Assembly: GCA_017475605.1 (NCBI GenBank)
Contig: JAFVFD010000003.1
Coordinates: 1-15,063, forward strand
Reading direction: 5' to 3'
DNA length: 15,063 nucleotides
DNA from: Alphaproteobacteria bacterium
GTDB taxonomy: Bacteria; Pseudomonadota; Alphaproteobacteria; Rs-D84
This document shows positions 174-15,063 of this stretch, piece after piece (position 1 is the stretch's first letter; each line of letters opens with the position of its first letter). The translations under genes were made by a program, and so were the position numbers. The notes below the pieces were generated by a model that searched no databases, had not been told where the DNA came from, and saw only the letters and a program-made list of their open reading frames with translations.

Positions 174-236
174 CACAGGCAATAAATAAAATCAAAAAAA
201 TCTCCGTTTGTCGATTTTTTAAGATTTTCTTAATTG

Positions 237-385: not shown

Positions 386-391
386 GATTCT

Positions 392-467
392 TGGCAGCCC
401 CAAACGGATTCGAACCGTTGTTCTCGCCTTGAAAGGGCGGTGTCCTGGGCCTCTAGACGATGGGGCC
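392..467 (-). tRNA. tRNA-Glu: tRNA-Glu (anticodon UUC), CCA encoded
   Basis: The reverse complement reads GGCCCCA UC GUCU AGAGGCCCA GGAC A CCGCC CUUUCAA GGCGA GAAC AACGG UUCGAAU CCGUU UGGGGCU G CCA. This is a full cloverleaf of 76 nt, arm-for-arm parallel to E. coli tRNA-Glu as I recall it. Confidence 0.93.
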
Positions 468-510
468 AAAAAACCTGCAATTTTTAGGAAATTTCCCAAA
501 ATGCCGGCAA

Positions 511-539
511 ATTATAACTGCGCTTTGGCGCATTGTCAA
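511..539 (-). promoter_or_regulatory. Consensus sigma70-type promoter for tRNA-Glu
   Basis: The minus strand reads TTGACA (534..539), a 17-nt spacer, then TATAAT (511..516). It lies about 40 nt upstream of the tRNA 5' end. Confidence 0.7.
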
Positions 540-543
540 GAAA

Positions 544-1500: not shown

Positions 1501-1526
1501 TTATTACATTCCTTTTGTTTTTTATA

Positions 1527-1554
1527 ATAGTAATACAAAAAATATAATTGTCAA
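1527..1554 (-). promoter_or_regulatory. Candidate promoter for the 318-aa ORF
   Basis: The minus strand reads TTGACA (1549..1554), a 16-nt spacer, then TACTAT (1527..1532). It sits between the tRNA-Asp terminator and the ATG at 1500. Confidence 0.5.
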
Positions 1555-1567
1555 TATGTTTGTTGAA

Positions 1568-1590
1568 ATAAAAAACCGCCAATTCGGCGG
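1568..1590 (-). terminator. Hairpin terminator after tRNA-Asp
   Basis: The stem ccgcc/ggcgg (1576..1580 with 1586..1590) has a 5-nt loop and is followed on the minus strand by a T-run (complement of the A-run 1568..1575). The stem is short, so confidence is moderate. Confidence 0.5.
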
Positions 1591-1598
1591 AAAATAAC

Positions 1599-1676
1599 TG
1601 GCGGGATGTAAGGGGCTCGAACCCTCGACCTTCTGCGTGACAGGCAGACGCTCTAAACCAGCTGAGCTAACACCCC
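1599..1676 (-). tRNA. tRNA-Asp: tRNA-Asp (anticodon GUC), CCA encoded
   Basis: The reverse complement reads GGGGUGU UA GCUC AGCUGGUUUA GAGC G UCUGC CUGUCAC GCAGA AGGUC GAGGG UUCGAGC CCCUU ACAUCCC G CCA. The cloverleaf has one G-U pair in the acceptor stem and one in the T stem. Confidence 0.92.
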
Positions 1677-1689
1677 GCAAAGCCCACAT

Positions 1690-1718
1690 ATCTTATACCG
1701 ACAAAGATGTAATTGCAA
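1690..1718 (-). promoter_or_regulatory. Candidate promoter for tRNA-Asp
   Basis: The minus strand reads TTGCAA (1713..1718), a 17-nt spacer, then TAAGAT (1690..1695). It lies about 14 nt upstream of the tRNA 5' end. Confidence 0.6.
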
Positions 1719-1744
1719 GTGTTTTTTTGTATTTTATATAAATA

Positions 1745-1772
1745 TTGACAATGTTGTGTTTTGTACTATATT
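1745..1772 (+). promoter_or_regulatory. Candidate promoter for the 167-aa ORF
   Basis: TTGACA (1745..1750), a 16-nt spacer, then TATATT (1767..1772). An AAAAGGGA Shine-Dalgarno-like element follows, with the ATG at 1804. Confidence 0.6.
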
Positions 1773-1803
1773 ATAATAAGTAAAGCAACCGAAAAGGGAC
1801 AAA

Positions 1804-2307
1804 ATGAAAAATATATTTGGAACAATCTTTAAGAAGAACACAGTTAAACCGGTACAATCGGCTGAAAAGCCTGTTTCTAAAATACCAGCAAAACCAAAGT
1901 ATGATTTTGTTGAACAATATACAGTTATTGATCCGAAAAAGATTTTAAACGGTGGTTATGAATTGTGGCAAATGTGTGAAAATGTCCCGGTGGCATGCGA
2001 AGAAGAAGGTGTGCCAACAACAGGGTTCATACGATACAAAATGTTGCCGACAAAAATCGTGATGGGTTTTCTGTGCGAATTACAGAAAAAAACATCGGAA
2101 GAAATCGAAGATCCGAAAATGCGTACTTTGTCCATTGTACATGTTTCCCAAAACCATCGCATTGTAATAGGACCTAATTTTGAATCGCCAAAATCACCTG
2201 TGTTTTGGGTGGTCGCCGACGATGTGCCCAAGAAAGATTGGATATTACATGTAACGCCGGAAAAGAACCGCGCGATTGTCGATGCGTTAAAAATACATAC
2301 GCGATAA
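1804..2307 (+). CDS. Hypothetical protein, 167 aa, no family recognised
   Basis: The ORF has a promoter, a Shine-Dalgarno-like element and a strong terminator immediately downstream. The N-terminus is lysine/proline-rich. No motif was recognised. Confidence 0.65.
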   Translation: MKNIFGTIFKKNTVKPVQSAEKPVSKIPAKPKYDFVEQYTVIDPKKILNGGYELWQMCENVPVACEEEGVPTTGFIRYKMLPTKIVMGFLCELQKKTSEEIEDPKMRTLSIVHVSQNHRIVIGPNFESPKSPVFWVVADDVPKKDWILHVTPEKNRAIVDALKIHTR

Positions 2308-2312
2308 AAAAT

Positions 2313-2336
2313 AAAAACCCGCATTTGCGGGTTTTT
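2313..2336. terminator. Bidirectional hairpin terminator between convergent genes
   Basis: aaaaacccgcatttgcgggttttt: a 5-bp GC stem (2318..2322 with 2327..2331) extended by A5/T5 arms. It serves both the 167-aa ORF and gap. Confidence 0.8.
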
Positions 2337-2340
2337 ATTT

Positions 2341-3342
2341 TTACTTGATAAGTTTTCCAATTGCCATTGCGGTATCGCACATGCGGTTTGAAAAGCCCCA
2401 TTCGTTATCATACCATGCGGTTACATGAACTAACTTATCTGCCAATACTTTTGTTTGTCCGGCATCAAAAATGGAACTGTGCGCATCATCTGTAAAGTCA
2501 ATCGAAACCAATGGTTTATCATTATAGCCAAATGTTTTAGATTCGGCCGCACGCATCGCATCGTTGACCGCTTCGACAGTTGCAGATTTTTCCAAATTCG
2601 CGACCAGTTCAACAACCGATACATCGGGGGTCGGAACGCGAATTGCCATGCCATCCATTTTTCCAGCCAGATTTGGTAAAACCAGACCAATAGCCTTGGC
2701 CGCACCGGTGGATGTCGGAATCATGGACATCGCCGCCGCGCGCGCACGACGGAAATCTTTGTGGTTTTTATCCAACAATTGCTGATCGCCGGTGTATGCG
2801 TGAACCGTTGTCATCCAGGCAGATACAATGCCGAACTTTTCGTCCAGCACCTTGGCCACCGGTGCCAAACAATTTGTTGTGCATGATGCGTTGGAAACAA
2901 TTAAATCGTCCGCGGTCAATGTATCTTCGTTAACACCGAAAACAATTGTTTTGTCCGCCCCCGCAGATGGTGCCGAAACCAAAACACGTTTCGCGCCCGC
3001 ATCAAGATGAACACGTGCCTTGTCCGCGGCGGTGAACAAACCTGTGCATTCCATAACGACATCAATTTTTAAATCTTTCCAAGGCAATTTAGACGGGTCG
3101 CGTTCGGAAATGCACTTGATTTTCTGATTGCCGACGATTATGTATTCACCGTCCAATTTAACATCCATTGGCAGTTTCCCATGTACAGAATCATATTCCA
3201 ACAAATATGCATTCTGTTCAGCCGGTGCCAAATCATTTACCGCAACAAATTCAATGTCATCGCGACCTGATACCAATGCCGCACGCAAAATAAGACGACC
3301 AATACGACCGAATCCGTTGATTGCTACTCTTAATTTAGACAT
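2341..3342 (-). CDS. gap: Type I glyceraldehyde-3-phosphate dehydrogenase
   Basis: N-terminal Rossmann motif VAINGFGRIGR and active-site SNASCTTNCLAP. The 333-aa length is typical, and WYDNEWGFSNRM lies near the C-terminus. AGGAAG Shine-Dalgarno element upstream. Confidence 0.96.
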   Translation of the reverse strand: MSKLRVAINGFGRIGRLILRAALVSGRDDIEFVAVNDLAPAEQNAYLLEYDSVHGKLPMDVKLDGEYIIVGNQKIKCISERDPSKLPWKDLKIDVVMECTGLFTAADKARVHLDAGAKRVLVSAPSAGADKTIVFGVNEDTLTADDLIVSNASCTTNCLAPVAKVLDEKFGIVSAWMTTVHAYTGDQQLLDKNHKDFRRARAAAMSMIPTSTGAAKAIGLVLPNLAGKMDGMAIRVPTPDVSVVELVANLEKSATVEAVNDAMRAAESKTFGYNDKPLVSIDFTDDAHSSIFDAGQTKVLADKLVHVTAWYDNEWGFSNRMCDTAMAIGKLIK

Positions 3343-3412
3343 ATTTCTTCCTTTCGTTTAATGTTATTGCTACACAAGGCTAATTCTAGCACTTTAATTT
3401 CACAGAATACAA

Positions 3413-3441
3413 TTGAATTTTGTCCGTTGCCATTTTATAAT
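3413..3441 (+). promoter_or_regulatory. Near-consensus promoter directly abutting the miaA start
   Basis: TTGAAT (3413..3418), a 17-nt spacer, then TATAAT (3436..3441). The miaA ATG at 3451 is only 9 nt downstream of the -10 element. Confidence 0.6.
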
Positions 3442-3450
3442 ATTGTCAAT

Positions 3451-4305
3451 ATGAAATACGATGCGTATATTATTACAGGTCCAACCGCGTCGGGCAAATC
3501 ATCTTTTGCCCATAATCTTGCACGCGAAATTGGCGGTACTATTATCAATGCCGACAGTGTACAAATATATCGCGGAATTGAAAATATATCTGCTTCGCCA
3601 TTTGCATCGCGCGAAATTACGCCAGAAATAGATGGGGTGCCGTATCGCCTTTTTTCAATTTTACCACTGACCCAGCAAATAAGTGTTGCGGAATATCTTG
3701 ATATGGCGCGGGCTGAATATGATGCGGCGCGCGGGGCTGGGCGGGTGCCGATTTTTGTTGGCGGGACGGGATACTATATAAATGCGTTGATACATGGTAT
3801 GTCGCCAATGCCGGAAATAGATGCAGATGTTCGGGCCAAGGCGCGTGATGTGGTGGCATCTGATATAGCGGCGGCACGCGCGATGTTGCCGGCCGATTTT
3901 ACCGCGACCGACCCACAACGCGTTGCCCGCGCATTAGAGGTTTTTTTACAAACAGGCATACATATAACCGAATATCAAAACGCGGCGCGTGTTGGTGCCG
4001 TTGTGCCAAATGCGCATCGAATACTTATTAATCCGCCGGCGGATGTGCTGCGGGCGCGTATTGCGGCGCGTATACCGGAAATGCTGTCGGGTGGCGCGTT
4101 GGCCGAGGCGCACGCGGTTATTGATTCCGGCTGGGACGAAACGCGGGCAATTGGTGCGGCGCAATTATGTGCCTATATTCGTGGCGAAATATCAATGGAT
4201 GTGGCCATCCAAAATTGGATTACCAAAACTAACCAATATGCCAAGCGGCAACGTACATGGTTTCGTACGCAATTTGACGCAGATGAAATCATTACAAAAA
4301 TCTGA
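3451..4305 (+). CDS. miaA: tRNA dimethylallyltransferase (tRNA delta2-isopentenylpyrophosphate transferase)
   Basis: MKYDAYIITGPTASGKS P-loop at the N-terminus, followed by DSVQIYRG and VGGTGYY, then C-terminal KRQRTWFR. The start was moved from the track's 3361 to the internal ATG at 3451, because MiaA proteins begin just before the P-loop. Confidence 0.92.
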   Translation: MKYDAYIITGPTASGKSSFAHNLAREIGGTIINADSVQIYRGIENISASPFASREITPEIDGVPYRLFSILPLTQQISVAEYLDMARAEYDAARGAGRVPIFVGGTGYYINALIHGMSPMPEIDADVRAKARDVVASDIAAARAMLPADFTATDPQRVARALEVFLQTGIHITEYQNAARVGAVVPNAHRILINPPADVLRARIAARIPEMLSGGALAEAHAVIDSGWDETRAIGAAQLCAYIRGEISMDVAIQNWITKTNQYAKRQRTWFRTQFDADEIITKI

Positions 4306-4350
4306 TTTTAATATATTGAATTTTATAAAAAAACCAGGTATTTTACATGT

Positions 4351-6558
4351 ATGTTTAAATCTGGTGATGTTGTAAAAGTTTTATTGCCAAATGTCGTCAA
4401 TACTGGATACGACTATCGCCTTAATGCGCCGGCGGATTTAGGTTCTTTTGTTGAATGTCGTGTTATGAATCGCCCCTATATTGGCGTTGTGTGGGGACTG
4501 CCGGATTCCGGTTTGCCGGCGGATAAAATCAAAAGCGTTGTACGCGTGTTGGATGCGCATATGTCTGTTGCTGATTTACAATGGATAAAGCGTATGTCCG
4601 ATTGGACCCTGATGACACCAGGGGCGGTATTAAAACTTATCATAAATATACCAGATGCTTTTTCGCCACCGCGTGTGGAACAATTGTATTCGTTTGATTT
4701 TGATGCGAAAATAAAAATGACCGCACCGCGCCAGGCGGTTGCCGATGCGTTTGCATCAAATGATAATGATGCGATGTCGGCAAATGATATTGTCAATATT
4801 GCGCATGTGTCGCCAGCGGTCGTGCGAACGATGATTAAAAATGAAATACTGCACCCAGCAGACGTGCGCACAGTGGAAAATGAAAACAGATTCATATATC
4901 AATATCACGATATGGGAACGGTCGTGTTAAATGATGAACAATCTGTCGCCGCGACCCAGATAGCCGATGCGATTGCGCATGGCGGTTTTTCTGTTTTTCT
5001 GTTGGATGGAATTACGGGGTCCGGCAAGACCCAGGTTTATTTTGATGCCGCGTTGCGTGCGTATAATGCGGGTAAATCGGTTTTGCTGATGATGCCGGAA
5101 ATTGCGTTGACCGCACAATTTATGTCGCGGTTTGAATCGCGATTTGGTGCCCCGCCCGTTGTATGGCACAGTAATTTAACCGCGGCGCGTCGGCGTGAAA
5201 TATGGCGTGGGGTGTGTCGGGGTGAAATACGGGTCGTTGTCGGTACACGAAGTGCGCTGTTTTTACCATGGCAAAACCTGGGGTTGATAGTCGTTGATGA
5301 AGAACACGATACTTCGTACAAGCAGGAAGATATGGGAAATTATCATGCGCGTGATATGGCAATTTTGCGTGCATCTATTGCCGGGTTCCCGGTTGTTTTG
5401 GCCAGTGCGACACCTGCGGCGGAAACACTGGAAAATGTTGCAACGGGAAAATATCGTGGACTTAAATTAACATCGCGATTTGGTGGGGCTACATTACCAA
5501 AAATAGAAACGATTGATTTACGGGCCAATCGCCCAGAATCATATAAAGCATCAACTGATGAAAATGCACAGGAAATTGCGGGCGCATTGTCCGCACCACT
5601 TTGTGATGCGATACGCGATACATTAAATAATCATCAACAGATAATGTTGTTTATAAATCGGCGCGGGTTTGCACCAATTGTGCAGTGTAAAAAATGTGGG
5701 TGGACGGCAACCTGTCCTGATTGCAGTGTTGGTATGACCTATCACAAACGCATTGGAAAATTGTTGTGTCATATGTGTGGGCGCACCGAACCATTACCGG
5801 ACAAGTGTGCGAATTGTGGTGGCGATGTTTCTATGCGTGGAACAGGTATTGAACGGGTCCAAGAAGAAGTTTTGGCGCGTTTCCCAAATGCGCGTACTGC
5901 AATCGTATCCAGTGATACAATCGCATCGCGGCAAAGCCTGGAACGCATTGTTGCGAAAATGGAATCGGGTGAAATAGATATTGTTATCGGAACACAGATT
6001 CTTGCCAAAGGGCACCATTTTCCGAATCTGACACTGGTTGGTGTGGTGGATGCAGATATGGGGTTGTTTGGGACCGACTTTCGTGCCGCGGAACATACAT
6101 TTCAGCAATTGTTCCAGGTCGCCGGTCGTGCCGGTCGTGGTGCGATACCGGGACGCGTTTTATTACAAACCTATCAACCCGACCACCCGGTGTTAAATGC
6201 CATCTGTGCGGGCAATCGTGATGAGTTTATGGAAACGGATATGGCGGGGCGGCGCATGGCAAAAATGCCACCTTTTGGGCAATTGATTGCGGTCGTTGTC
6301 GAGGGTGCGCGTGAAAATATTTTACAAAAATACTGTACCGATTTGGCGGCGGCCGCACCAAATATAAATGGAGGGCGCATAATGGGACCGGTGCCGGCGC
6401 AAATATATCAGATTCGAAATTGGTACCGGATGCGGTTTTTGGTTTCGGGCGATGTGCGCGCAAAATTACAGCCGATTGTCGCGAATTGGTTGGCGCGTGT
6501 GAAACAACCCGCAAATATTCGCGTTAAAATCGATGTGAACCCAGTTAATTTTATGTAA
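4351..6558 (+). CDS. priA: Primosomal protein N' (replication restart helicase PriA)
   Basis: Walker A GITGSGKT and DEEH box VVDEEHD. The cysteine-rich zinc region is CKKCGWTATCPDC...CHMCG...CANCGG. 735 aa. Confidence 0.95.
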   Translation: MFKSGDVVKVLLPNVVNTGYDYRLNAPADLGSFVECRVMNRPYIGVVWGLPDSGLPADKIKSVVRVLDAHMSVADLQWIKRMSDWTLMTPGAVLKLIINIPDAFSPPRVEQLYSFDFDAKIKMTAPRQAVADAFASNDNDAMSANDIVNIAHVSPAVVRTMIKNEILHPADVRTVENENRFIYQYHDMGTVVLNDEQSVAATQIADAIAHGGFSVFLLDGITGSGKTQVYFDAALRAYNAGKSVLLMMPEIALTAQFMSRFESRFGAPPVVWHSNLTAARRREIWRGVCRGEIRVVVGTRSALFLPWQNLGLIVVDEEHDTSYKQEDMGNYHARDMAILRASIAGFPVVLASATPAAETLENVATGKYRGLKLTSRFGGATLPKIETIDLRANRPESYKASTDENAQEIAGALSAPLCDAIRDTLNNHQQIMLFINRRGFAPIVQCKKCGWTATCPDCSVGMTYHKRIGKLLCHMCGRTEPLPDKCANCGGDVSMRGTGIERVQEEVLARFPNARTAIVSSDTIASRQSLERIVAKMESGEIDIVIGTQILAKGHHFPNLTLVGVVDADMGLFGTDFRAAEHTFQQLFQVAGRAGRGAIPGRVLLQTYQPDHPVLNAICAGNRDEFMETDMAGRRMAKMPPFGQLIAVVVEGARENILQKYCTDLAAAAPNINGGRIMGPVPAQIYQIRNWYRMRFLVSGDVRAKLQPIVANWLARVKQPANIRVKIDVNPVNFM

Positions 6559-6562
6559 TAAG

Positions 6563-6584
6563 AAAGGCGCAAATTGCGCCTTTT
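6563..6584. terminator. Bidirectional hairpin terminator after priA and the convergent small ORF
   Basis: aaaggcgcaaattgcgcctttt: a 6-bp stem (6566..6571 with 6575..6580) with A and T flanks. Confidence 0.75.
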
Positions 6585-6585
6585 G

Positions 6586-6870
6586 TTATCTTGCGTGGCA
6601 GAATACTTTATTCCACAGTGCGCGCCATCTGGCAGACCTTTCGGCGCGTTTGCGGGCGCGTTCCGCAAAGTATTCTTCTAGATTAGATTTTTCTGAATAT
6701 TGCGCATTTGATTCCGAGGCGTGCGGGTGGTTCTTTTCCCATACGGTTGACATATATTGATTAAATTCGTTGCGACGTTTGTTGTTTACGTTGCCCATTT
6801 CATCAATTAGTCCCAATCGCATCATTTCAGCATCGGAACCATCATACTTTATTTCGTGTTCTTTCATCAT
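6586..6870 (-). CDS. Hypothetical small charged protein, 94 aa, co-oriented 20 nt downstream of the VirB11-like ATPase
   Basis: The ORF fills the gap between the ATPase stop and the terminator. The C-terminus is basic (ERARKRAERSARWRALW). No family was recognised and the Shine-Dalgarno element is weak. Confidence 0.5.
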   Translation of the reverse strand: MMKEHEIKYDGSDAEMMRLGLIDEMGNVNNKRRNEFNQYMSTVWEKNHPHASESNAQYSEKSNLEEYFAERARKRAERSARWRALWNKVFCHAR

Positions 6871-6890
6871 TGCTTTTCCATTCTTTTTGT

Positions 6891-7868
6891 TTATATAACC
6901 TCGGTTACGGCACGCAGGGCCCCATCGCGCGATAATTGGACAACACGAATTTTTTTGCGCATTTCAGCCATCAATTGTGCGCGGTCATATGCGGGCTGGG
7001 TGTGTAAAATGCGGTCTGCAAATGCAGCATATGCGGCATCGGCACTTTCCGCGTGAATTGTTGTATAGAAATGGTCGTGCCCCGTCCCCAGCATTTCCCA
7101 CAGCACCGACGCATTGTCCGTTGATATTTCGCCACCGATAATAACATCGGGTGTCATACGCACCACCAGGTCCAGCAGGCGTGCATAATTAAAATCATTT
7201 GTTTGTTCGGTACGCGACAGGACAAAATGTACACGATTATCCTGGGGGACACGAATTTCACGTGCATCTTCGACCGTAATGACACGACTGTTTTGGTCAA
7301 TAAGGGTCAGCATATGATTCAAAAAGGTTGTTTTACCAGTTGCCGTTGCACCACTTATTAAAATAGGGCTGCCATCATTTATGGCGGACATTAAACGGTC
7401 GTATGGATCGTCGGGACGAACGGTTTGACGCGGTTTAACACGTAATAATTTTTTCCCGCGTTCAAGGTGGTAATTTTCAAAACTGGTATCCGGTGCGCCG
7501 CCGCCGCGAATACTCATGGCGACACCGCCGGTTATATCGCGTTCGTCAAATTGTACATTCGGTCCCGCGATTGCCGAAAAACGATGATTACCCGGAAGTG
7601 TCGCATAAACAACCGGCATGCCATGTATCGGGTCAAATGGACGTTCGTATATGTTCGCGACCGTATGTATTAAATCAACCAGGTATTGTTTCGACAACTG
7701 TGGCGCATCATACGCAACCCATGGAACGCGCGCACCATGCAGGCGCATCCAAACCTGGCCTGCGTGATTTATGGCGATTTCTTCGACGAATTCGGGTTTA
7801 TAAAACTCGGCCAAAGGTTCCAATAAAGAATCAAGTACTACATTTGACATTTGTTTTAATTTTATCAT
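6891..7868 (-). CDS. virB11: VirB11-family (type II/IV secretion system) hexameric ATPase
   Basis: N-terminal EEIAINHAGQVWM. Walker A GATATGKT is at 7329..7352 (checked at the nucleotide level). Walker B-like region VITVEDAREI and His-box GTGHDHFYTTIHA. The 325-aa length fits VirB11 rather than CpaF or PilB. Confidence 0.82.
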   Translation of the reverse strand: MIKLKQMSNVVLDSLLEPLAEFYKPEFVEEIAINHAGQVWMRLHGARVPWVAYDAPQLSKQYLVDLIHTVANIYERPFDPIHGMPVVYATLPGNHRFSAIAGPNVQFDERDITGGVAMSIRGGGAPDTSFENYHLERGKKLLRVKPRQTVRPDDPYDRLMSAINDGSPILISGATATGKTTFLNHMLTLIDQNSRVITVEDAREIRVPQDNRVHFVLSRTEQTNDFNYARLLDLVVRMTPDVIIGGEISTDNASVLWEMLGTGHDHFYTTIHAESADAAYAAFADRILHTQPAYDRAQLMAEMRKKIRVVQLSRDGALRAVTEVI

Positions 7869-7878
7869 AAATCGACCC

Positions 7879-7907
7879 TTGAATCAAAATGCTTTATTTG
7901 GTAAAAT
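7879..7907 (+). promoter_or_regulatory. Candidate promoter for the 186-aa lipoprotein gene
   Basis: TTGAAT (7879..7884), a 17-nt spacer, then TAAAAT (7902..7907). A purine-rich Shine-Dalgarno region follows, with the ATG at 7929. Confidence 0.6.
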
Positions 7908-7928
7908 AGAAAAAAAGAGAGAAAGAAA

Positions 7929-8489
7929 ATGAAAAAATCTTGGATTGCTGTAATTTGTGCTGTATTGGCGTTGGGCGCGTGTTCAACGGGCGATACACCG
8001 TATAATACCGATGATTTTGAACATGGTGGTGCCGATGCCCCGTTGTACAACGAACGGACCAGCCAATTTATGCAGGCGGAAAATCAATATTCCAATATTG
8101 ATTCCTATAAACCCAAAACCGCCAAGGAAAAAGAATTAAGCGATAATAAATGGAAAACATCGCGTATGGAAACCCATTGGCAAGAATACAAGGGGACAAT
8201 GGTTCGTGTACAAATCTTGCTGGGGAACAGTGATGTTCGTGAAATGCGCCTGCGCCTGATGCAAAATGCCGACGGTATGGATATTGACGGCGATGCACGT
8301 ACCATTTTGGCCAAGGTCGCAGACTATGAAATGAAACGCGTTTGTGGCCGTAACACCGACAGTATTGTTATGATTTATGACAAACCGTCATTTGATGTTA
8401 TGCGCCCAACACCGTATTATGATTATCGGATGGAGGCCGAAGGGTCCACCATGCGCGAATACGGGTTCCGTTGCGTTTATAACAATTAA
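7929..8489 (+). CDS. Putative lipoprotein, 186 aa, function unknown
   Basis: Signal peptide [18 protein letters not shown] with the lipobox L-G-A-C. A strong terminator lies downstream. Confidence 0.78.
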
Positions 8490-8493
8490 AAAG

Positions 8494-8517
8494 ACCGGCA
8501 AAATGCCGGTTTTTTTT
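8494..8517 (+). terminator. Rho-independent terminator
   Basis: accggcaaaatgccggt: a 7-bp stem followed by a T8 run. Confidence 0.82.
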
Positions 8518-8519
8518 AC

Positions 8520-8549
8520 TTGCATTTTGTGCCCCAGATTTAATATATT
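8520..8549 (+). promoter_or_regulatory. Candidate promoter for the FKBP lipoprotein gene
   Basis: TTGCAT (8520..8525), an 18-nt spacer, then TATATT (8544..8549). AAAGGGGA Shine-Dalgarno element, with the ATG at 8579. Confidence 0.5.
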
Positions 8550-8578
8550 TGTGTTGGACAAAACAAAAGGGGACAATC

Positions 8579-8908
8579 ATGAAAAAAATTATGTCTGTAT
8601 TGGGCATTTGCGGTGTTGCTTTCTTGGCGGCATGCGACAGTAATGCTGGTGCGAAAAACGGTGATACAGTTGTTATCGATTTCGCGGGTTATCTTGATGG
8701 CGAACAATTCGAAGGGGGTACGGCATCTGGTTTCCCATTGACATTGGGCAGCGGTCAATTCGTTCCAGGATTTGAAGAACAAATCGTTGGTATGAAGGTT
8801 GGTGAAACAAAAGACATCAACATCACATTCCCAGAACAGTATGTTGAAAACTTGGCCGGCAAGGCGGTTGTGTTCAAAGTAACTGTTAACGAAATCAAAA
8901 AGAATTAA
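8579..8908 (+). CDS. FKBP-type peptidyl-prolyl cis-trans isomerase lipoprotein (trigger-factor-like PPIase domain)
   Basis: Start chosen at the internal ATG at 8579, which follows the Shine-Dalgarno element. Signal peptide [19 protein letters not shown] has the lipobox L-A-A-C. The mature part ([49 protein letters not shown]...) parallels the E. coli trigger factor PPIase domain as I recall it. Confidence 0.85.
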
Positions 8909-8922
8909 TCTTTTTAATCTTG

Positions 8923-8955
8923 AAAAAAACGCCGCCCGTTTGGGCGGTGTTTTTT
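8923..8955. terminator. Bidirectional hairpin terminator between the FKBP gene and lpxI
   Basis: aaaaaaacgccgcccgtttgggcggtgtttttt: an 8-bp stem (one G-U pair) with A7 and T6 flanks. Confidence 0.82.
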
Positions 8956-8968
8956 ATTTTGCTTTTGT

Positions 8969-9802
8969 TTATTCATCAATCGCGGTGATAAAGATTTTTA
9001 ATTTATTCGCTTCTTTTATCACATTTTCGCGGTCAACAACAAAACATGTTTTTGTGTTAACAATAATTCCACGCAGGTGTGCGGCCGCGACGGCGCGCAC
9101 CGTATCAACACCAATGGCGGGAATGTCAATGCGTAAATCTTGGCCTGGTTTGGTCATTTTGGCAAAAACACCACTGGCGCGTTTTTTGTTTTTGCGCATT
9201 TCAACAACGCGTTCCAGCATACGTGCGGTACCCTCGGCTGCTTCGACTGCGATAACCTGCTTGTCAACAACAACAGATGCGCCAATGTCCGCCGCACCAA
9301 TAGTGTGCGATACATCAATTGCGCGTTCTATATCCGCCATATCTGATTTTGTTGGTTTGGTTTTCGTCTGAATACCCGCCGATTCAAATGTTAATTCCGG
9401 GGCCAAATCCTGGGCCGCCAAGATATTAAATCCACGCTTTTCTAAAATCTTGTTTAGTGTAACCGCCATAGAATCATACCCCCGTTGATGTTTCATAATG
9501 CTTAATAACACCGACAGCGACCATAAATCTGGTCGTATGTCGTAAAGGTTTGGGTGCCCAATCGCACCGACAAATACCAGGTTGCGAATGCCACGCCTGC
9601 GAAATTCACGCACCGCACGACCCGCACCCCCAAGTCGCACCACAATATCCGGATTCAATTTCGGATCAACAAAGTTTTTAAGTCCAACAACATACACGTC
9701 CCAGCCCGCACGACGCAGCGCATCGCGGGTAAAAAATGGTAACTGTAATGCGCCGGCTATCAAAGCAATCTTGTTATCGGCGCGCGTGTTCAATCGTTTC
9801 AT
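8969..9802 (-). CDS. lpxI: UDP-2,3-diacylglucosamine pyrophosphatase LpxI (DUF1009 family)
   Basis: The N-terminal IALIAGALQLP and the block DIERAIDVSHTIGAADIGASVVVDKQVIAVEAAEGTARMLERV...KPGQDLRIDIPAIGVDTV closely parallel Caulobacter LpxI as I recall it. 277 aa. Confidence 0.85.
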   Translation of the reverse strand: MKRLNTRADNKIALIAGALQLPFFTRDALRRAGWDVYVVGLKNFVDPKLNPDIVVRLGGAGRAVREFRRRGIRNLVFVGAIGHPNLYDIRPDLWSLSVLLSIMKHQRGYDSMAVTLNKILEKRGFNILAAQDLAPELTFESAGIQTKTKPTKSDMADIERAIDVSHTIGAADIGASVVVDKQVIAVEAAEGTARMLERVVEMRKNKKRASGVFAKMTKPGQDLRIDIPAIGVDTVRAVAAAHLRGIIVNTKTCFVVDRENVIKEANKLKIFITAIDE

Positions 9803-9840
9803 AATATCTAAGGGTACGCATAAATCGCGCTGGAATCAAG

Positions 9841-9868
9841 TTGCAATTTATGATAATATTTATATAAA
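9841..9868 (+). promoter_or_regulatory. Candidate promoter for the tandem outer membrane protein genes
   Basis: TTGCAA (9841..9846), a 16-nt spacer, then TATAAA (9863..9868). Confidence 0.45.
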
Positions 9869-9890
9869 GTGAAAATTGGGTGTAACGCAT

Positions 9891-10655
9891 ATGAAAAAAA
9901 TATCTTGTTTAGTTGTTGCGATGTTGGTGGCAATGCCTGCATACGCAAAATACAGCGACCGTCAATTCCGTTCGGAAATCGCACGTGGTGTTGACATTAT
10001 TGGTGCGGAATCAAATGTTAATGTGATACCGGACGATGCACCGGGCGCATTGGGACGTGATGTGTACCAGAAAGTCGGTGTTGTCGATAATTCTGATATA
10101 ACAATGTTCATTCCAACAACAATGTATGTGCGCGCGGGTGGGGGATTTAACCTGCCGTTTGCGACGGACTATGCCGGGTTTGGTGGCGAAAAACATTCGT
10201 CCAGTGGTTCTTATACCGCGCAAATAGGTTTGGGGTGGAATCTGTCATCGTATGTGCGGACTGAAATTGATGCGCAGACATCTACATTTACTTTTTCACA
10301 CCTGGATAATCGCCAGGCAAATTATCAAACATTGGGCGCGATGTTATATTTTGATTTTGCCCGTCGATATGTTCAAACGGGTGATGTTACGCGCATGCGC
10401 CATTTTGTGCCATTTATGGGTGTGGGTGCCGGGTTTGGACACTATGAATTCGAAGGGGCCGATGGTTCAAATGGATTTGTTATTGCCGCACCACGCGCAA
10501 CATTGGGCTTTAATATAATGCTGACCGATTTGATTGGTATTGATATTGCGTATCAATATCAGATGATGATTGGTAACGGATTCGGTTGGGGTGTGCGCCA
10601 TGGCGGTGTTGATAATATCAGCAACGTTATTGCGTCTTTTCGTGTGAATTTCTGA
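9891..10655 (+). CDS. Outer membrane beta-barrel (porin-family) protein, paralog 1
   Basis: Start set at the ATG at 9891, giving signal peptide MKKISCLVVAMLVAMPAYA. Alternating aromatic and glycine-rich beta-strand pattern. The C-terminal SFRVNF ends in Phe, as is typical of beta-barrel outer membrane proteins. Confidence 0.8.
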   Translation: MKKISCLVVAMLVAMPAYAKYSDRQFRSEIARGVDIIGAESNVNVIPDDAPGALGRDVYQKVGVVDNSDITMFIPTTMYVRAGGGFNLPFATDYAGFGGEKHSSSGSYTAQIGLGWNLSSYVRTEIDAQTSTFTFSHLDNRQANYQTLGAMLYFDFARRYVQTGDVTRMRHFVPFMGVGAGFGHYEFEGADGSNGFVIAAPRATLGFNIMLTDLIGIDIAYQYQMMIGNGFGWGVRHGGVDNISNVIASFRVNF

Positions 10656-10668
10656 TGGGGTGAATGAT

Positions 10669-11319
10669 ATGAAAATAAAATTATTAATTGGTGCATTGTG
10701 TTTAATCGCAACATCCGCGAACGCGGCGATTCCATACCGCGTACGCCAGGTGGTAACCCCGCCGGCCGAAATCCCAGATGGTAACGATGACGAGGCCTTT
10801 GCCCGTATCCACCGTTTTTATGTTGGTGGTATGTATGATTTTTCAATGTGGCAATCATATACAGACAAAAACGATGTGCGCGTTAGCGGTAAAAACACAT
10901 CTTCGTTTGATATTGTCGCTGGTATTCGTATTTATGATACTTTCCGGTTGGAAGCAAACTATGCCCGCACAATCGCAAAGTTCGATGATATTAAATTGGA
11001 AGGCAACACCGTTTTCGCAAATGCTATATTTGATGCGCGTATTGACAGTATGTATCGCCTTTTCCGGTCGCAAAGCCTGGTGCCGTATGTCGGTGCCGGT
11101 GTCGGTTTAAGTGGGAACAAAGTCGATGGCGCAAAAATTGATGACAAAATAAGTCCGGCGGTCGCGGTTATGGCGGGCCTGGGAATTGAACTGGGCGAAT
11201 ATTTCACAATTGATGCGGGTTATCGCTATATGTATATGTTTTCGCCAAAGTTTGATGCGATTGAAGGTCTGAACCCAACGGCGCATCAATTCCGCGTTGG
11301 CGCACGTGTGAACTTTTAA
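10669..11319 (+). CDS. Outer membrane beta-barrel (porin-family) protein, paralog 2
   Basis: Start set at the ATG at 10669, giving signal peptide MKIKLLIGALCLIATSANA. It ends GARVNF and shares VP(F/Y)(M/V)G.G.G and Y.Y blocks with paralog 1. Confidence 0.8.
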   Translation: MKIKLLIGALCLIATSANAAIPYRVRQVVTPPAEIPDGNDDEAFARIHRFYVGGMYDFSMWQSYTDKNDVRVSGKNTSSFDIVAGIRIYDTFRLEANYARTIAKFDDIKLEGNTVFANAIFDARIDSMYRLFRSQSLVPYVGAGVGLSGNKVDGAKIDDKISPAVAVMAGLGIELGEYFTIDAGYRYMYMFSPKFDAIEGLNPTAHQFRVGARVNF

Positions 11320-11325
11320 TCGAAT

Positions 11326-12249
11326 ATGAAAAAGTGTCCGTTCTTTGGTATATGTGGTGGGTGTAAATATGATTTTACATCGGCGGACTATCATAATCAA
11401 AAATTGGCGGCATTACCTGATTTGCCGATAACCGATGATGCGCGGTGGCTGGATGCGGGGGCGCGCCGTCGTGGCGATTTCTGTTTTGCGCCGAACGAAT
11501 TTGGGCTGTTCGAATCGCGGTCTAAAAATATAGTGCCGGTGCGCAATTGTCCGAATATGGTACCGGAAATTAACGATATTTTACCGCGTGTTGCGGCATT
11601 ACCATGGGGGGCATCGGGTTCGTGCCTTATCACATCATGCGAAAATGGAATCGATATTGTGGTTAATTCCGATGTGCCGTATTTTACCCCCGAATTTAAA
11701 ACTGCGGCGGAAAAAACAGGTGCGATTCGCGTTGTGTGGAACGATAAAATCGTGTTTCAATCTGAAAAGCCAATAATTAAATTTGATGATGTTGCGGTGG
11801 AATACCCAGCAAACGCGTTTTTACAACCAGGCAAGCCAGGCGAGTCCGCATTGCGCGAAATGGTCGTTTCCGCGGTGGCGGGCGCAAAACGCGTGGCAGA
11901 TTTGTTCTGTGGCCTGGGCAGTTTTACATTTGCAACACATGCCGATGGCTTTGATATTGTTGGCACCGGTGTAAAGCGCGATTTGTTTACGCATCCGCTT
12001 ACGGTTGGAATGTTGAACGGGTATGATTGTGTAATAATGGACCCACCGCGTGCGGGTGCGATGGCCCAGTGTCGTGAATTGATTAAAAGTAATGTCGGGC
12101 GTGTGATTTATGTTTCGTGTAACCCGGAAACATTCCGTCGCGATATGAATATTCTGGTGCGTGGGGGGTATAAATTGCGTGAACTGGTCCCCGTTGATCA
12201 ATTTGTGGGCAGTGCCCACTGGGAACTTTTTTCCGTATTTGAAAAATAA
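11326..12249 (+). CDS. Class I SAM-dependent RNA (uracil-5) methyltransferase, RumA/TrmA family, short form without a TRAM domain
   Basis: N-terminal CPFFGICGGCKYDF plus a later VRNCP gives four Cys, as in the RumA Fe-S cluster. Other motifs are DLFCGLGSFT (SAM motif I), DPPRAG (motif IV) and YVSCNPETFRRD. Confidence 0.85.
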   Translation: MKKCPFFGICGGCKYDFTSADYHNQKLAALPDLPITDDARWLDAGARRRGDFCFAPNEFGLFESRSKNIVPVRNCPNMVPEINDILPRVAALPWGASGSCLITSCENGIDIVVNSDVPYFTPEFKTAAEKTGAIRVVWNDKIVFQSEKPIIKFDDVAVEYPANAFLQPGKPGESALREMVVSAVAGAKRVADLFCGLGSFTFATHADGFDIVGTGVKRDLFTHPLTVGMLNGYDCVIMDPPRAGAMAQCRELIKSNVGRVIYVSCNPETFRRDMNILVRGGYKLRELVPVDQFVGSAHWELFSVFEK

Positions 12250-12255
12250 AAGCAA

Positions 12256-12280
12256 ACCGCCAGAAATGGCGGTCTGTTTT
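12256..12280. terminator. Bidirectional hairpin terminator between the RNA methyltransferase gene and the DUF262-HNH gene
   Basis: accgccagaaatggcggt: a 7-bp stem followed by ctgtttt. The stop codon of the minus-strand DUF262-HNH gene (12279..12281) lies in the T-tract. Confidence 0.75.
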
Positions 12281-13478
12281 AATCATCGCTTTTCTTGCGG
12301 TTGTGGTGGCGACATAACATTTGGCAATTTTCTGGAACTGTTTTTCCGCCCTGGGACCATGGAATAATATGGTCGCCATCCATTTCTTCAAATTTCCATA
12401 CTTTGTTTTCGTTTTCTGTGTTTTCACAATACGGACAAATGCCACCTTGTTTTTGATATATTGTGCGTTTCGTTGCGTTGTCGAATTGGCGCAGGTTCAG
12501 GTGTTTTTTATCATTATCAAAAACAAATTCAAATATACCGCGCTTGTTTTGTATTTCTTCGTCTGCCATTAAACCGGCAACAGCACGTCGCATAACCGAT
12601 GTATCATATTTTCTGTAACCATATTTGTTATACAATGTTCCCCATGGCAAACCACGCATTTCGTTATAGTATGTTTCACCAAACACATCGTGGACCCAAT
12701 CAACAACCGATTTATAATAGTTTATCAGTTCATCTGCGGTTTCATCCGCGCGATGAATTGACATATAATTTTTTATTTCCGGGTATTGTGTTGGGTTTGT
12801 TTCAATTATCCACCCCAGTACAAGGTTTAACAATGCCTGGCGATTGGCGGCTTCGCTGTTTATTGCGATAATGCTGTGCTTTCTGTCATTGTCAAAATAG
12901 CGATAGTTTAATGCGGGGTTGTTGTCCTTTTTGGAAAAGAACGCCTTGGCGGATGTAAGCCATGTGCCAGTATAGTCCGCATTTAACAATTCCTGTTCGG
13001 TCATTTGTTCGCCGGCAATATTAATTGTGTGGAACCATTCTAGTTTTTCGTCTTCGTTCCCATCGCAAACATATACCTGTAATTTATATTCGTCCAAGAT
13101 TTGTTTTTGTTTGTCCGGGGATAATTGTGTAAATGTCTGGGTGCGCCGACCGTCAAAGTTTATCGCAATAGGGTTGCCGTATCCGTCATCGTTTGTAATA
13201 AATTGACAGATAGATATTGTCCGTTGTTGGCCATCAATAATTTCAAATGTGCCATCGGGGTTTTTTGACCAATACATAACATTTAACGGTAAATCGTCAT
13301 AAACCGATTTCATAACCATGTCGCGTTTGTCGGGGGTATAGATAAATTCGCGCTGAAACGCGGGGCGGACATTAAGTTTACCGCCAAACGCAACAACACC
13401 ATTGTCGCCGGAGTCGCGATAGCCATCGACCAATTGCCGAATGGTAAGTGTATCAAGTAATTTTGCCTTCATAACCAT
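12279..13478 (-). CDS. DUF262 (ParB-like, GmrSD N-terminal type) domain fused to a C-terminal HNH zinc-finger nuclease
   Basis: RPAFQREFIY and IIDGQQRT are DUF262 hallmarks; DGQQR is at 13221..13235, checked at the nucleotide level. The C-terminal CPYC...DGDHIIPWSQGG...ENCQMLCRHHN (12300..12437) is a CxxC / DH / N / CxxC-HH HNH motif. AAGGA lies 8 nt upstream of the ATG, inside the preceding gene. Confidence 0.88.
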   Translation of the reverse strand: MVMKAKLLDTLTIRQLVDGYRDSGDNGVVAFGGKLNVRPAFQREFIYTPDKRDMVMKSVYDDLPLNVMYWSKNPDGTFEIIDGQQRTISICQFITNDDGYGNPIAINFDGRRTQTFTQLSPDKQKQILDEYKLQVYVCDGNEDEKLEWFHTINIAGEQMTEQELLNADYTGTWLTSAKAFFSKKDNNPALNYRYFDNDRKHSIIAINSEAANRQALLNLVLGWIIETNPTQYPEIKNYMSIHRADETADELINYYKSVVDWVHDVFGETYYNEMRGLPWGTLYNKYGYRKYDTSVMRRAVAGLMADEEIQNKRGIFEFVFDNDKKHLNLRQFDNATKRTIYQKQGGICPYCENTENENKVWKFEEMDGDHIIPWSQGGKTVPENCQMLCRHHNRKKSDD

Positions 13479-13479
13479 A

Positions 13480-14541
13480 TTAGTTTCCTTTTTTCTTTTT
13501 GATTAAAATTCGCGCATATGGAACAGTAACTATGTTATCCACCATCATGTATAAATCACCATCAACAGCGCCTCTTTTCTGAATGGTTTTTCTATATAAT
13601 TTATGCTCTGGTTTATATGGTTTAACACCTATTTCAAGACCAGAATTTGATATACCTAAGCCGATTATTTCAAATTGGTCTGGGTTATGTTTGTTCAAAA
13701 ATGTTATTGGTACGCCCATGGCTCCATCATAATCCATTGGTATATCGTCCGTTTTATTGATATTTATTGCATCATAATTTTCATACTTTGGATACATGTG
13801 TTCATAACCGTAGTATTTTTTACCGGTTTCCAAAAATTCTGTACGTTTTGTTGTTGGTAAGTTTGTGAACCAGCAAACCGCCGGTGTTGTTATATAATTA
13901 TCGTCTGGATCATACCCATGGGAACGCACATTTTTACGATTGCTTTCCGAAGTATTTTTATATAATGTCTTGAATATCATTGCCACATTAAAACCATACC
14001 CAACCCACATTTTATTTTCTTTTATTAAGGGAAACACTTCTCTGTATGTTATTGCATTAATATTTCCAATGATTATAAATTTCTTTTTATACTCCATTAA
14101 CTGTGCGACATATTCCCGAAAAAGTGAGAACGGCGGGTTTGTTACGACCAAATCTGCGGTTTTTAGCAGTTTTACACATTCGTCCGAACGAAAATCACCG
14201 TTTGATTTTAAGGGTATTTCCTGGATGTCTTCGCTGCAAATAATGCCGTCGCCGGTGTTGTCTTTATCCAAAATATACATTGTTGATGCGCCATCGCGTT
14301 CATAGTGTGTGGCGATTACGCGTTTGATACCAAATGCCTCGAAATTATCAGCAAAGTATTTAAGAAAGTTTGATTTTGGTGTGCCCAGTCCGATTCCCGC
14401 GTGGTCATCACAATTGCAGTAAATCACCTTGTTCTTGAAATACTTGGCATAATGATTCAGTTCTTTCTCAATTTCGTCGTAGCAGGTGTAAAATTCATCG
14501 TTTTTGTTTTCTTTTGCAAGAAACATTGTATGTTTTGCCAT
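13480..14541 (-). CDS. N6-adenine DNA methyltransferase, EcoRI-methylase-like family
   Basis: Catalytic motif IV VVTNPPFSLF, with NPPF at 14128..14139 (checked at the nucleotide level). The N-terminal NDEFYT...VIYCNCDD block matches what I recall of the adenine-specific methyltransferase EcoRI family. The stop TAA (13480..13482) is 1 nt from the next ATG. Confidence 0.82.
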   Translation of the reverse strand: MAKHTMFLAKENKNDEFYTCYDEIEKELNHYAKYFKNKVIYCNCDDHAGIGLGTPKSNFLKYFADNFEAFGIKRVIATHYERDGASTMYILDKDNTGDGIICSEDIQEIPLKSNGDFRSDECVKLLKTADLVVTNPPFSLFREYVAQLMEYKKKFIIIGNINAITYREVFPLIKENKMWVGYGFNVAMIFKTLYKNTSESNRKNVRSHGYDPDDNYITTPAVCWFTNLPTTKRTEFLETGKKYYGYEHMYPKYENYDAININKTDDIPMDYDGAMGVPITFLNKHNPDQFEIIGLGISNSGLEIGVKPYKPEHKLYRKTIQKRGAVDGDLYMMVDNIVTVPYARILIKKKKGN

Positions 14542-14791
14542 ACCCTAACCCCGATTGTATAAAAATTAAACCGCCAACAGAAATTGACGGTCGGGGAGTT
14601 GATAAAACATACAAAGTGATGCTCCTGTGGGTTTTAAGATATATCTTTGAACATAACCACAGCCCCCCGACCAATAGATCGGGGATGAATACAGTGCAAA
14701 AAGCACCGAAACATCGGATTACGATGCTTTCGCACCGACTTTGTAAAGGCTTATCACGGCCCGAACCCAATTCCCATTGGATTCAATTCAA
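14542..14791 (-). promoter_or_regulatory. Long structured 5' leader of the methyltransferase/nuclease operon
   Basis: No credible ORF. On the minus-strand RNA there are four complementary segments: CCCCGA, UCGGGGGG, CCCCGA and UCGGGG. There is also a 6-bp clamp hairpin (14625..14630 with 14657..14662) around a 12-nt palindrome, and a hairpin plus U5. The last UCGGGG covers the only Shine-Dalgarno-like G-run, 7 nt before the ATG. Confidence 0.45.
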
Positions 14792-14800
14792 ATTATAACA
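14792..14800 (-). promoter_or_regulatory. Extended -10 promoter candidate (TGTTATAAT) for the methyltransferase operon or leader RNA
   Basis: The minus strand reads TG-T-TATAAT (plus strand attataaca at 14792..14800). The TTGATT upstream is only 9 nt away, so it is not a usable -35. The extended -10 would have to suffice alone. Confidence 0.4.
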
Positions 14801-14895
14801 CAGAAAAATCAAAAGGGAATTGTTTTGTTTGGTGTTGCTACCCCGTCTTGCTGCGCTGCGCTTGCAATCCACCCCTTCGCATGGCAAAGGGGAAT

Positions 14896-14922
14896 AAAAA
14901 AACGCCGCCGTTGCCGGCGGTG
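14896..14922 (-). terminator. Strong hairpin terminator, best on the minus strand
   Basis: ccgccg/cggcgg: a 6-bp GC stem (14905..14910 with 14915..14920) with a 4-nt loop, extended by two more pairs. It is followed on the minus strand by T7, but only by TGTTTT on the plus strand. Confidence 0.78.
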
Positions 14923-15045
14923 TTTTCCGAATGCTCTTGAAAGGAAGGAAAGGAGAAAAAGAAATAGAGCATTCTTAACTTTCAGGTGGGGCCCAGAGCT
15001 CAGAGGAGAGAGAATGTAGGAGGGAGTCTGAATCCCTGAACCCCA
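14896..15045 (-). ncRNA. Candidate small RNA rich in C and U (5' end undefined, may start beyond the window)
   Basis: The minus strand carries a 5-bp hairpin (15021..15037), then the CU-rich stretch CUCCCUCCUACAUUCUCUCUCCUCUG. A perfect 9-bp stem (14929..14937 with 14966..14974) follows, enclosing a 28-nt loop AUUUCUUUUUCUCCUUUCCUUCCUUUCA. The terminator comes last. No promoter is visible inside the window. Confidence 0.3.
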
Positions 15046-15063
15046 TATGGTCATCGGGTTTAA

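Follow-up and report, generated by a model that had tools for sequence, protein, structure and literature searches.

An EcoRI-family methyltransferase coupled to a DUF262-HNH nuclease: a probable BanLI-type restriction-modification cassette whose methylase may choose the DNA target

Introduction

Which of the two proteins reads the DNA in a restriction-modification (R-M) cassette whose nuclease is better conserved than its methylase? The question is raised by a pair of genes found in the window, the stretch of 15,063 nucleotides (nt) that we analyzed from an alphaproteobacterial assembly (GCA_017475605.1, contig JAFVFD010000003.1, positions 1 to 15,063). On its minus strand, a gene for an EcoRI-family N6-adenine DNA methyltransferase (gene 1, the methylase hereafter) is followed by a gene for a nuclease that joins a DUF262 domain to a zinc-finger HNH domain (gene 2). 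The locus is very probably an R-M system of the type of BanLI, described in Bifidobacterium animalis subsp. lactis. Taken alone it is a further copy of a known and very common kind of R-M system, catalogued and not discussed as a class, and the point of interest is a property of the family. Comparison of the related cassettes suggests that it is the methylase, and not the nuclease, that would choose the DNA target, which has not previously been described for BanLI-type systems. We put forward this methylase-directed targeting of the nuclease as a tentative proposal, to which we give a little less than an even chance. As to the whole, we lean slightly towards a mobile cassette of the BanLI kind in which the methylase would supply the specificity and the nuclease would be generic and switched by a nucleoside triphosphate (NTP).

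Results

Methylase variability and nuclease conservation

We compared 129 complete methylase/nuclease pairs. The nuclease was more conserved than its own methylase in 86% of the pairwise comparisons (mean identity 59% vs 53%). When the methylase was divided into regions, mean pairwise identity was 55% for its core, 37% for a first hypervariable block and 15% for a second one (blocks 1 and 2), the nuclease being at 58%. Many cassette pairs have nucleases that are 85-98% identical and methylases that are just 52-79% identical; in such pairs the methylase differences sit in blocks 1 and 2 (0-40% identity), the rest of the protein remaining 80-100% identical. A single cluster of 20 nucleases sharing at least 80% identity includes 10 methylase block types, and three block types are already found with the nucleases of the window and of two related loci, L005 and L006, which are 87-89% identical. 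Reciprocally, one block type can occur with nucleases that are 41-57% identical: block 2 of the window recurs (61-70% identity) in the loci L024 and L137, where the nucleases are ~41-45% identical. Since L005 and L006 have block 1 in common and not block 2, the two blocks assort independently. No block of the nuclease is comparably variable or co-varies with those of the methylase in the 129 cassettes; the middle region of the nuclease displays lineage-specific indels, yet no block as variable as the methylase ones.

Blocks 1 and 2 of the window are 14% and 9% identical, respectively, to the corresponding parts of M.EcoRI, against 51% in the core, and we consider both as putative target-recognition modules. 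Provided that they do set specificity, the pattern present in the 129 cassettes, a variable methylase recognition region beside a conserved nuclease subunit, is that of Type III systems. Specificity that changes freely in the methylase while the nuclease remains constant could not be tolerated by a nuclease with a fixed recognition sequence of its own.

This bears directly on the possibility that the pair is a classical Type II system (IIP or IIS), in which the nuclease would independently recognize the sequence of the methylase and cut in or near it, DUF262 being a DNA-binding or accessory domain. PADLOC labels the two proteins MTase_II and REase_II, REBASE names BanLI and its relatives Type II, the discoverers of BanLI regarded it as Type IIS, and the methylase of the window is 48% identical to M.EcoRI. 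Many HNH nucleases are, moreover, bona fide Type II enzymes. Nevertheless, nearly identical nucleases pair here with unrelated methylase blocks, up to ten block types within one nuclease cluster, and such swaps would kill the cell if the nuclease was independently specific. The specificities of nuclease and methylase should change together in a classical Type IIP system, whereas no co-varying nuclease block is observed, and a nuclease more conserved than its methylase is the reverse of the usual Type II pattern. The NTPase motifs of the nuclease are also invariant, BanLI methylates one strand of an asymmetric site with one methylase, and 95% of the loci have a single methylase. On balance, we consider the classical Type II explanation as unlikely.

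Linkage of the methylase and nuclease genes

The methylase of the window was used to search 165 loci with a nuclease homologue, taken from plasmids, one genome, 80 metagenome contigs and 80 IMG/VR contigs. Among the 146 testable loci, i.e. those with at least 900 nt upstream of the nuclease homologue, 139 (95%) show an EcoRI-family methylase gene just before the nuclease gene and in the same orientation, and six of the seven others have one within ~3 kb. In 105 of these 139 loci the two genes overlap or have no more than 5 nt between them, and the commonest junction is a 4-nt NTGA overlap (81/152). The loci are distributed over plasmids of Bacillota, Actinomycetota, Pseudomonadota and Bacteroidota, a cultured Flavobacterium phage and metagenome sequences; in RefSeq/NCBI, many of the copies on plasmids (for example those of Mammaliicoccus and Enterococcus) and in phages bear the labels "EcoRI family methyltransferase" and "DUF262 domain-containing protein". 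The two genes are linked as closely as those of any R-M system.

Such a tight linkage speaks against a Type IV enzyme that happens to have a methylase as its neighbor. In that case a nuclease similar to GmrSD or BrxU would attack modified phage DNA (e.g. hydroxymethylated or glucosylated) and the methylase would fulfill a separate role, whether anti-restriction, epigenetic or cassette stabilising. The nuclease has indeed an N-terminal GmrSD_N domain with a DGQQR motif and matches in part the PADLOC models NsnA, PD-T4-2_A and mREase_IV; its conservation independently of the methylase blocks would also suit an enzyme that does not read the sequence of the methylase. However, a constant association with one methylase family is unusual for Type IV enzymes; here it reaches 95% of the loci, with the methylase first and an overlapping stop and start. 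The nuclease has no match to DUF1524 (E-value of 0.1 or below). An EcoRI-family methylase went undetected on the contig at one of the 146 loci only. Furthermore, pre-methylation by M.BanLI helped transformation, and the BanLI pair reduced the plaquing of P1, a phage without hypermodified bases. A Type IV enzyme appears to us improbable.

The parallel with GmrSD, BrxU and SspE nevertheless extends to an N-terminal DUF262 domain with QR, DGQQR and FxxxN motifs, a C-terminal His-Me-finger nuclease and a likely control by NTP. It ends with the nuclease domain itself, DUF1524 in these proteins and a zinc-finger HNH (PF01844) here, and with the almost constant coupling to a cognate adenine methylase (95% of loci), where a member of that family would be expected to stand alone or to accompany a modification system other than a methylase and to act on modified DNA; the target expected here is unmodified DNA.

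Two isolated observations were made on these loci. At the exception, L077 (1442-2602), the nuclease homologue seems to be intact and is preceded by a gene whose product, secreted or lipoprotein-like, is unrelated; the contig ends 217 nt past the nuclease gene. The cultured siphovirus vB_FspS_laban6-1 of Flavobacterium (L173, 1278-3640, gp07-gp08) carries the pair with a 4-nt overlap, moron-like, beside its tape-measure gene and in the opposite orientation; nuclease homologues are encoded in 114 IMG/VR stretches.

A natural methylase-nuclease fusion

No methylase-nuclease fusion was found among the 165 loci, and a single fusion lineage was met, only in the search of cluster representatives. This protein of 688 amino acids (aa), present on two contigs (L172, 6001-8067, P0278; also P0391), joins an EcoRI-methylase-like domain to an intact DUF262-HNH nuclease. 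Its methylase catalytic motifs are destroyed, NPPF being replaced by FPSF and DEFYT by NLFAS, and no other methylase is encoded within 6 kb. The contig, met in two assemblies, is Mollicutes-like and uses genetic code 4, where TGA codes for Trp; every TGA of the gene falls at a conserved Trp. The fusion hints that the methylase fold could serve the nuclease in a non-catalytic manner.

The fusion also bears on a mechanism inspired by SspE, in which DUF262 recognition of host phosphorothioate triggers the NTPase and switches the nuclease domain to DNA nicking (PMC10952713). By analogy, our nuclease would read the N6-methyladenine (m6A) marks of the host regardless of sequence context, these marks would tune its NTPase, and unmarked DNA would be nicked or cut without any contact with the methylase. 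With SspE as a precedent, this would explain how one nuclease serves many methylase specificities. Yet no m6A-reader domain was detected with Pfam or Foldseek, and a context-independent reading of m6A would let Dam or other adenine methylation protect invaders. The fusion with a dead methylase domain is also easier to explain if the methylase fold itself serves the nuclease. We see only a slim chance for such a sensing mechanism.

Comparison with BanLI and with catalogued systems

Both proteins match full-length models of PADLOC-DB: MTase_II PDLC03297 (E-value 6e-101, full length) for the methylase and REase_II PDLC03418 (E-value 9e-101, profile 8-371/372) for the nuclease. BanLI is a Type II system of REBASE described by O'Connell Motherway et al. 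in 2014 (PMC3990576). Its genes are in the order M then R and encode M.BanLI (41.7 kDa), which the authors aligned to M.EcoRI, and R.BanLI (43.5 kDa). M.BanLI modifies the asymmetric site RTC(m6A)GG on one strand. Once cloned, the R-M pair lowered the plaquing of P1vir about 10-fold in E. coli, and pre-methylation by M.BanLI raised transformation 1.8-fold. The authors proposed an (incomplete) Type IIS system having lost a second methylase (PMC3990576). In a paper of 2026, the REBASE Type II restriction endonuclease of BanLI specificity corresponds to a gene annotated "DUF262 domain-containing protein" (PMC13091528).

The window thus resembles BanLI by two adjacent genes on the same strand, methylase first, a single methylase similar to M.EcoRI and a restriction protein of ~43 kDa annotated as DUF262. 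It differs by its host, a gut alphaproteobacterium (Candidatus Enterousia-like) rather than a bifidobacterium, and the variable blocks differ among all relatives. The original prediction, made from the DNA alone, had seen in the locus a coupled, methyltransferase-first module resembling an R-M system. The TAA-T-ATG junction and the recurrence of the pair as neighboring genes on the same strand at 139 of 146 loci bear this out. On the other hand, its opinion that the architecture was not a recognized one has to be abandoned: the pair is largely covered by BanLI in REBASE and in the literature and by the PADLOC models, it recurs at 95% of the loci, and it bears explicit NCBI annotations. In the literature searched, the association of DUF262-HNH nucleases with EcoRI-like methylases is not described as a class. 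Reviews of DUF262 defence proteins (including PMC10952713) name GmrSD, BrxU, SspE, Menshen, Dazbog and PD-T4-2, and the cassette is not among them.

Domains and conserved residues

The methylase matches the Pfam family EcoRI_methylase over its whole length (profile 5-345/345, E-value 4.9e-113), scoring 378 bits where the cut-off is 26.4. Over aa 9-309 it shares 48% identity with the M.EcoRI encoded beside R.EcoRI on the E. coli plasmid pU90-3. It shares with M.EcoRI the NPPF motif and the N-terminal motifs. In the 129 linked methylases, conservation reaches 99-100% for NPPF, 95-97% for D15, E16, F17, Y18 and T19 of NDEFYT and 95-98% for CNCDD. The likeness to EcoRI stops at the variable blocks and at the nuclease, as R.EcoRI is a PD-(D/E)XK enzyme whereas a DUF262-HNH protein is encoded here; EcoRI plasmids also have the order R then M, against M then R in the window. 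The specificity of the methylase is probably unlike that of EcoRI, because GAATTC shows no depletion in the window and its close relatives (10 copies in the 40 kb formed by the window, L005, L006 and L007). EcoRI-family methylases without either known nuclease partner were also observed, as orphan or truncated copies on conjugative plasmids: L168 2468-3385 on the Campylobacter coli plasmid pOR12CC42, where a 230-aa hypothetical protein is encoded next downstream, and L169 2923-3645 on Bifidobacterium breve pMP7017.

In the nuclease, FQREF is located at aa 41-45 and DGQQR at aa 82-86 (13221-13235). Among 129 homologues, Q42, R43, D82-G-Q-Q-R86 and N153 are 100% conserved and F149 is conserved at 98%. 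Foldseek matches of the DUF262 domain to ParB-CDP/CTP structures are weak. No Pfam family matches the middle region (aa 170-347). The HNH domain displays CPYC (348-351), DH (369-370), N384 and C385QMLC389RHHN393 (12300-12437 in all); C348, C351, D369, H370, N384, C389 and N393 are conserved at 99-100%, the fourth zinc ligand is probably H392, replaced by Cys in about half of the homologues, and the closest structure is the Gme HNH nicking endonuclease 4h9d. Since the QR, DGQQR, FxxxN, HNH and zinc residues are 98-100% conserved, the NTPase and HNH activities would both be under selection. The family is large: a word-indexed search gave more than 8000 clusters of nuclease homologues at 90% identity, and cluster representatives at 50% identity include 3957 homologues at E-values up to 1e-3 and 305 at E-values up to 1e-30.

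Organization of the locus

The main features of the locus are listed in Table 1. At the junction, the minus strand reads GGAAAC TAA T ATG GTT ATG, with the methylase stop at 13482-13480, a T at 13479 and the nuclease ATG at 13478-13476; a Shine-Dalgarno-like AAGGAA for the nuclease gene is located within the methylase gene, and the two genes are translationally coupled. The G+C content is 0.356 in the methylase gene, 0.409 in the nuclease gene and 0.449 on the housekeeping side (1-12249).

Most of what the original prediction had read in this region is found again. This holds for the coupled junction with the Shine-Dalgarno element inside the first gene, the AT-richness of the methylase gene, the motifs NPPF, NDEFYT, CNCDD, FQREF and DGQQR at their places, the assignment to the EcoRI methylase family, which the Pfam match confirms, and the joining of DUF262 to a classical zinc-finger HNH rather than to DUF1524 (Pfam GmrSD_N and HNH PF01844 matches). 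The zinc finger was correctly placed as well, except that its last cysteine pair, given as CxxC, is actually CxxxC.

Table 1. Positions of the features of the cassette and of its borders in the window.
Feature	Position	Strand	Basis or remark
RNA (uracil-5) methyltransferase gene	11326-12249	+	Convergent neighbor of the cassette nuclease gene
Terminator-like hairpin, common to the convergent RNA methyltransferase gene	12253..12276	both	Terminator scan; scores on both strands
Gene 2, DUF262-HNH nuclease (restriction subunit), 399 aa	12279..13478	-	PADLOC, Pfam
Zinc-finger HNH nuclease domain, aa 348-398	12285..12437	-	Pfam HNH PF01844, E-value 1.1e-11
Mostly helical middle region, aa 170-347	12438..12971	-	AlphaFold2 model, mean predicted local distance difference test (pLDDT) 82, helices 215 to 344
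DUF262/GmrSD_N ParB-Srx-like NTPase domain, aa 37-169, with QR, DGQQR and FxxxN	12972..13370	-	Pfam PF03235, E-value 1.3e-17
TAA-T-ATG junction, methylase stop/nuclease start	13476..13482	-	Sequence
Gene 1, EcoRI-family (PF13651) N6-adenine DNA methyltransferase, 353 aa	13480..14541	-	Pfam, PADLOC
Hypervariable block 2, aa 291-343, second putative target-recognition module	13513..13671	-	Comparison of cassettes
Hypervariable block 1, aa 178-232, putative target-recognition module	13846..14010	-	Comparison of cassettes
NPPF catalytic motif IV, aa 135-138	14128..14139	-	Translation
CNCDD, aa 42-46, putative equivalent of S-adenosylmethionine-binding motif I	14404..14418	-	Translation; binding role putative
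NDEFYT, N-terminal methylase motif, aa 14-19	14485..14502	-	Translation
Leader/promoter region travelling with the cassette	14542..14834	-	Aligns upstream of the methylase gene in L005 and L006
Upstream terminator-like hairpin, outside the conserved cassette	14903..14920	both	Terminator scan; scores on both strands

Discussion

A possible mechanism

In our best reading, as in the original prediction, the cassette would encode a methylation-protected and possibly nucleotide-regulated nuclease. It would be transcribed from its own promoter (extended -10 TGTTATAAT) as a single mRNA with a conserved, structured leader. The methylase would be translated first and the nuclease through coupled translation, for which the junction is observed. 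The methylase would mark the N6 of an adenine in a short site set by its two variable blocks, and this mark would protect the host DNA from the nuclease. The zinc-finger HNH domain would cut unmarked DNA, the ParB/Srx-like DUF262 domain binding and hydrolyzing NTP as a switch; this NTP control is proposed because of the conserved motifs and of the precedents of GmrSD, BrxU and SspE. As the nuclease shows no co-variation with the methylase blocks, we propose that it has no fixed sequence specificity and that the methylase directs or licenses it at unmethylated sites, in the manner of Mod with Res in Type III systems. Newly replicated self DNA could be spared by a need for two inversely oriented unmethylated sites and for NTP-dependent communication between them. 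Methylase-directed targeting would explain why BanLI, with its one methylase, marks only one strand of an asymmetric site. That BanLI lost a second methylase is on the contrary unlikely, as 95% of the cassettes have exactly one.

A parallel can thus be drawn with Type III systems such as EcoP15I and those with phase-variable mod alleles. The gene order mod then res, the coupled translation, the swappable methylase recognition regions and the conserved NTPase-nuclease would all have their counterpart here, and one-strand methylation of an asymmetric site is seen in BanLI, the one member tested. Res combines a superfamily 2 (SF2) helicase-like ATPase with a PD-(D/E)XK nuclease, and Mod, an enzyme of the beta class, has its recognition domain in the center. 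By contrast, there is no homology between the two kinds of systems, and only DUF262 and HNH domains are found in our nuclease, so the resemblance is functional only. It may be, and we advance it with reserve, that cassettes of an EcoRI-family methylase and a DUF262-HNH nuclease form a distinct and widespread R-M class. Within it the methylase would be the sole reader of the sequence and the ParB/Srx NTPase possibly an NTP-gated clamp or switch for communication along DNA, making it an analogue of Type III built from unrelated domains.

Several points weigh against this reading of the cassette. M.EcoRI pairs with an unrelated and fully sequence-specific nuclease, so its family needs no Type III-like partner. 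REBASE and PADLOC file the family as Type II, a class whose nucleases normally recognize a sequence by themselves. The assignment of blocks 1 and 2 as target-recognition modules comes from their position, their divergence from M.EcoRI and their behavior among cassettes. The fusion protein comes from one lineage and may be a relic in decay. The restriction conferred by BanLI is weak, and R.BanLI was placed in the nuclease family by its annotation text, its size, the gene order and its M.EcoRI-like partner, not by alignment: the published BanLI primers and the peptides that they encode match none of the collected loci, and no bifidobacterial protein was among the matches of a protein search with a high-GC nuclease homologue. 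Finally, the literature searched contains no biochemical study of a nuclease of this family, whether on cleavage, NTP dependence or target finding.

What would be the consequences if specificity was given by the methylase? The family is found on plasmids, phages and chromosomes of many phyla, and predictions of cleavage specificity in the "Type II" manner of REBASE would need a different logic for thousands of genes. Two swappable recognition blocks and a constant nuclease would make a naturally modular system for engineering specificities. The ParB/Srx NTPase fold, known at present from Type IV, Ssp and BREX-associated enzymes, would also be at work in the classical restriction of unmodified DNA. 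The model would also explain the "incomplete" appearance of BanLI to its discoverers and allow a rapid switching of specificity by shuffling two methylase modules.

Borders, leader and mobility of the cassette

Homology with related cassettes defines a span of about 12277-14834, including a leader of 290 nt. It ends at window positions 14834 and 14800 with L005 and L006, respectively. The counterparts of the leader (L005 4698-4990, L006 2333-2560) contain long invariant stretches although the methylases are 64-68% identical, and among the three closest cassettes the leader of ~290 nt is better conserved than the methylase itself. The extended -10 (14800-14792) is bracketed by the inverted repeats CAATTCCC/GGGAATTG; the leader also has a palindrome, GAATCCAATGGGAATTGGGTTC, and two or three hairpins follow the promoter, among which an invariant one, CGAAAGCATCGTAATCCGATGTTTCG, then GGTGC-TTTTT-GCAC. 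No credible Rfam family was found in it at gathering or E-value of 1 thresholds, and its conserved motifs are confined to the closest relatives, being absent from more distant cassettes. Judging from these motifs, the leader may be an operator or attenuator controlling R-M expression.

Terminator-like sites are numerous in the region (11 vs 4.2 +/- 2.1 in shuffles). The stems of the hairpin at the nuclease end are of 10 bp on the minus strand and 7 bp on the plus strand, and the nuclease stop (12279-12281, TTA on the plus strand) is located within the CTGTTTTAAT tail of the plus-strand hairpin that follows the RNA methyltransferase gene. The original prediction had described flanking bidirectional terminators and a stop codon inside the T-tract. 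Both are present, but the upstream terminator does not belong to the cassette unit: it is ~360 nt from the methylase start and homology ends at about 14834.

The insertion suspected in the same prediction fits with the low G+C content and with what is observed in relatives. In L007, from a sister genome, the flanking genes are 92-94% identical to those of the window at the amino-acid level, and the nuclease gene is convergent not with the RNA methyltransferase gene but with a T2SSE-family ATPase gene (window 6891-7868, junction at window 6880; L007 52-1269 and 1300-3544). As the same nuclease gene occupies a different chromosomal site there, the cassette moved within the lineage. With L005 (Candidatus Enterousia sp.) and L006, the window shares the cassette and nothing else. 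No integrase, transposase, or terminal direct or inverted repeats marking transposition or integration were found around the cassette, nor was an empty-site relative, the only contigs with an identical RNA methyltransferase having the cassette at the same place. Altogether, the cassette looks mobile and horizontally acquired.

Word avoidance was considered as a clue to the recognition site of the cassette. In the same 40 kb as above, GATC is depleted (33 observed vs 135 expected under a maximal-order Markov model) and CATG, ACGT, GGCC and TTTAAA are under-represented as well. The depletions suggest other restriction pressures in the lineage. The strongest ones (GATC, CATG, ACGT, TTTAAA) are not attributable to the cassette, and this route to its site was rejected.

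Lastly, in the same strain, a gene matching Phage_T7_Capsid in Pfam (L170, 12133-12789) is located a few genes past the cassette, ~3 kb outside the window on its right side. It comes after genes for a lipoate-protein ligase and a cell-wall hydrolase-like protein, and may be what remains of a prophage close to the site of insertion.

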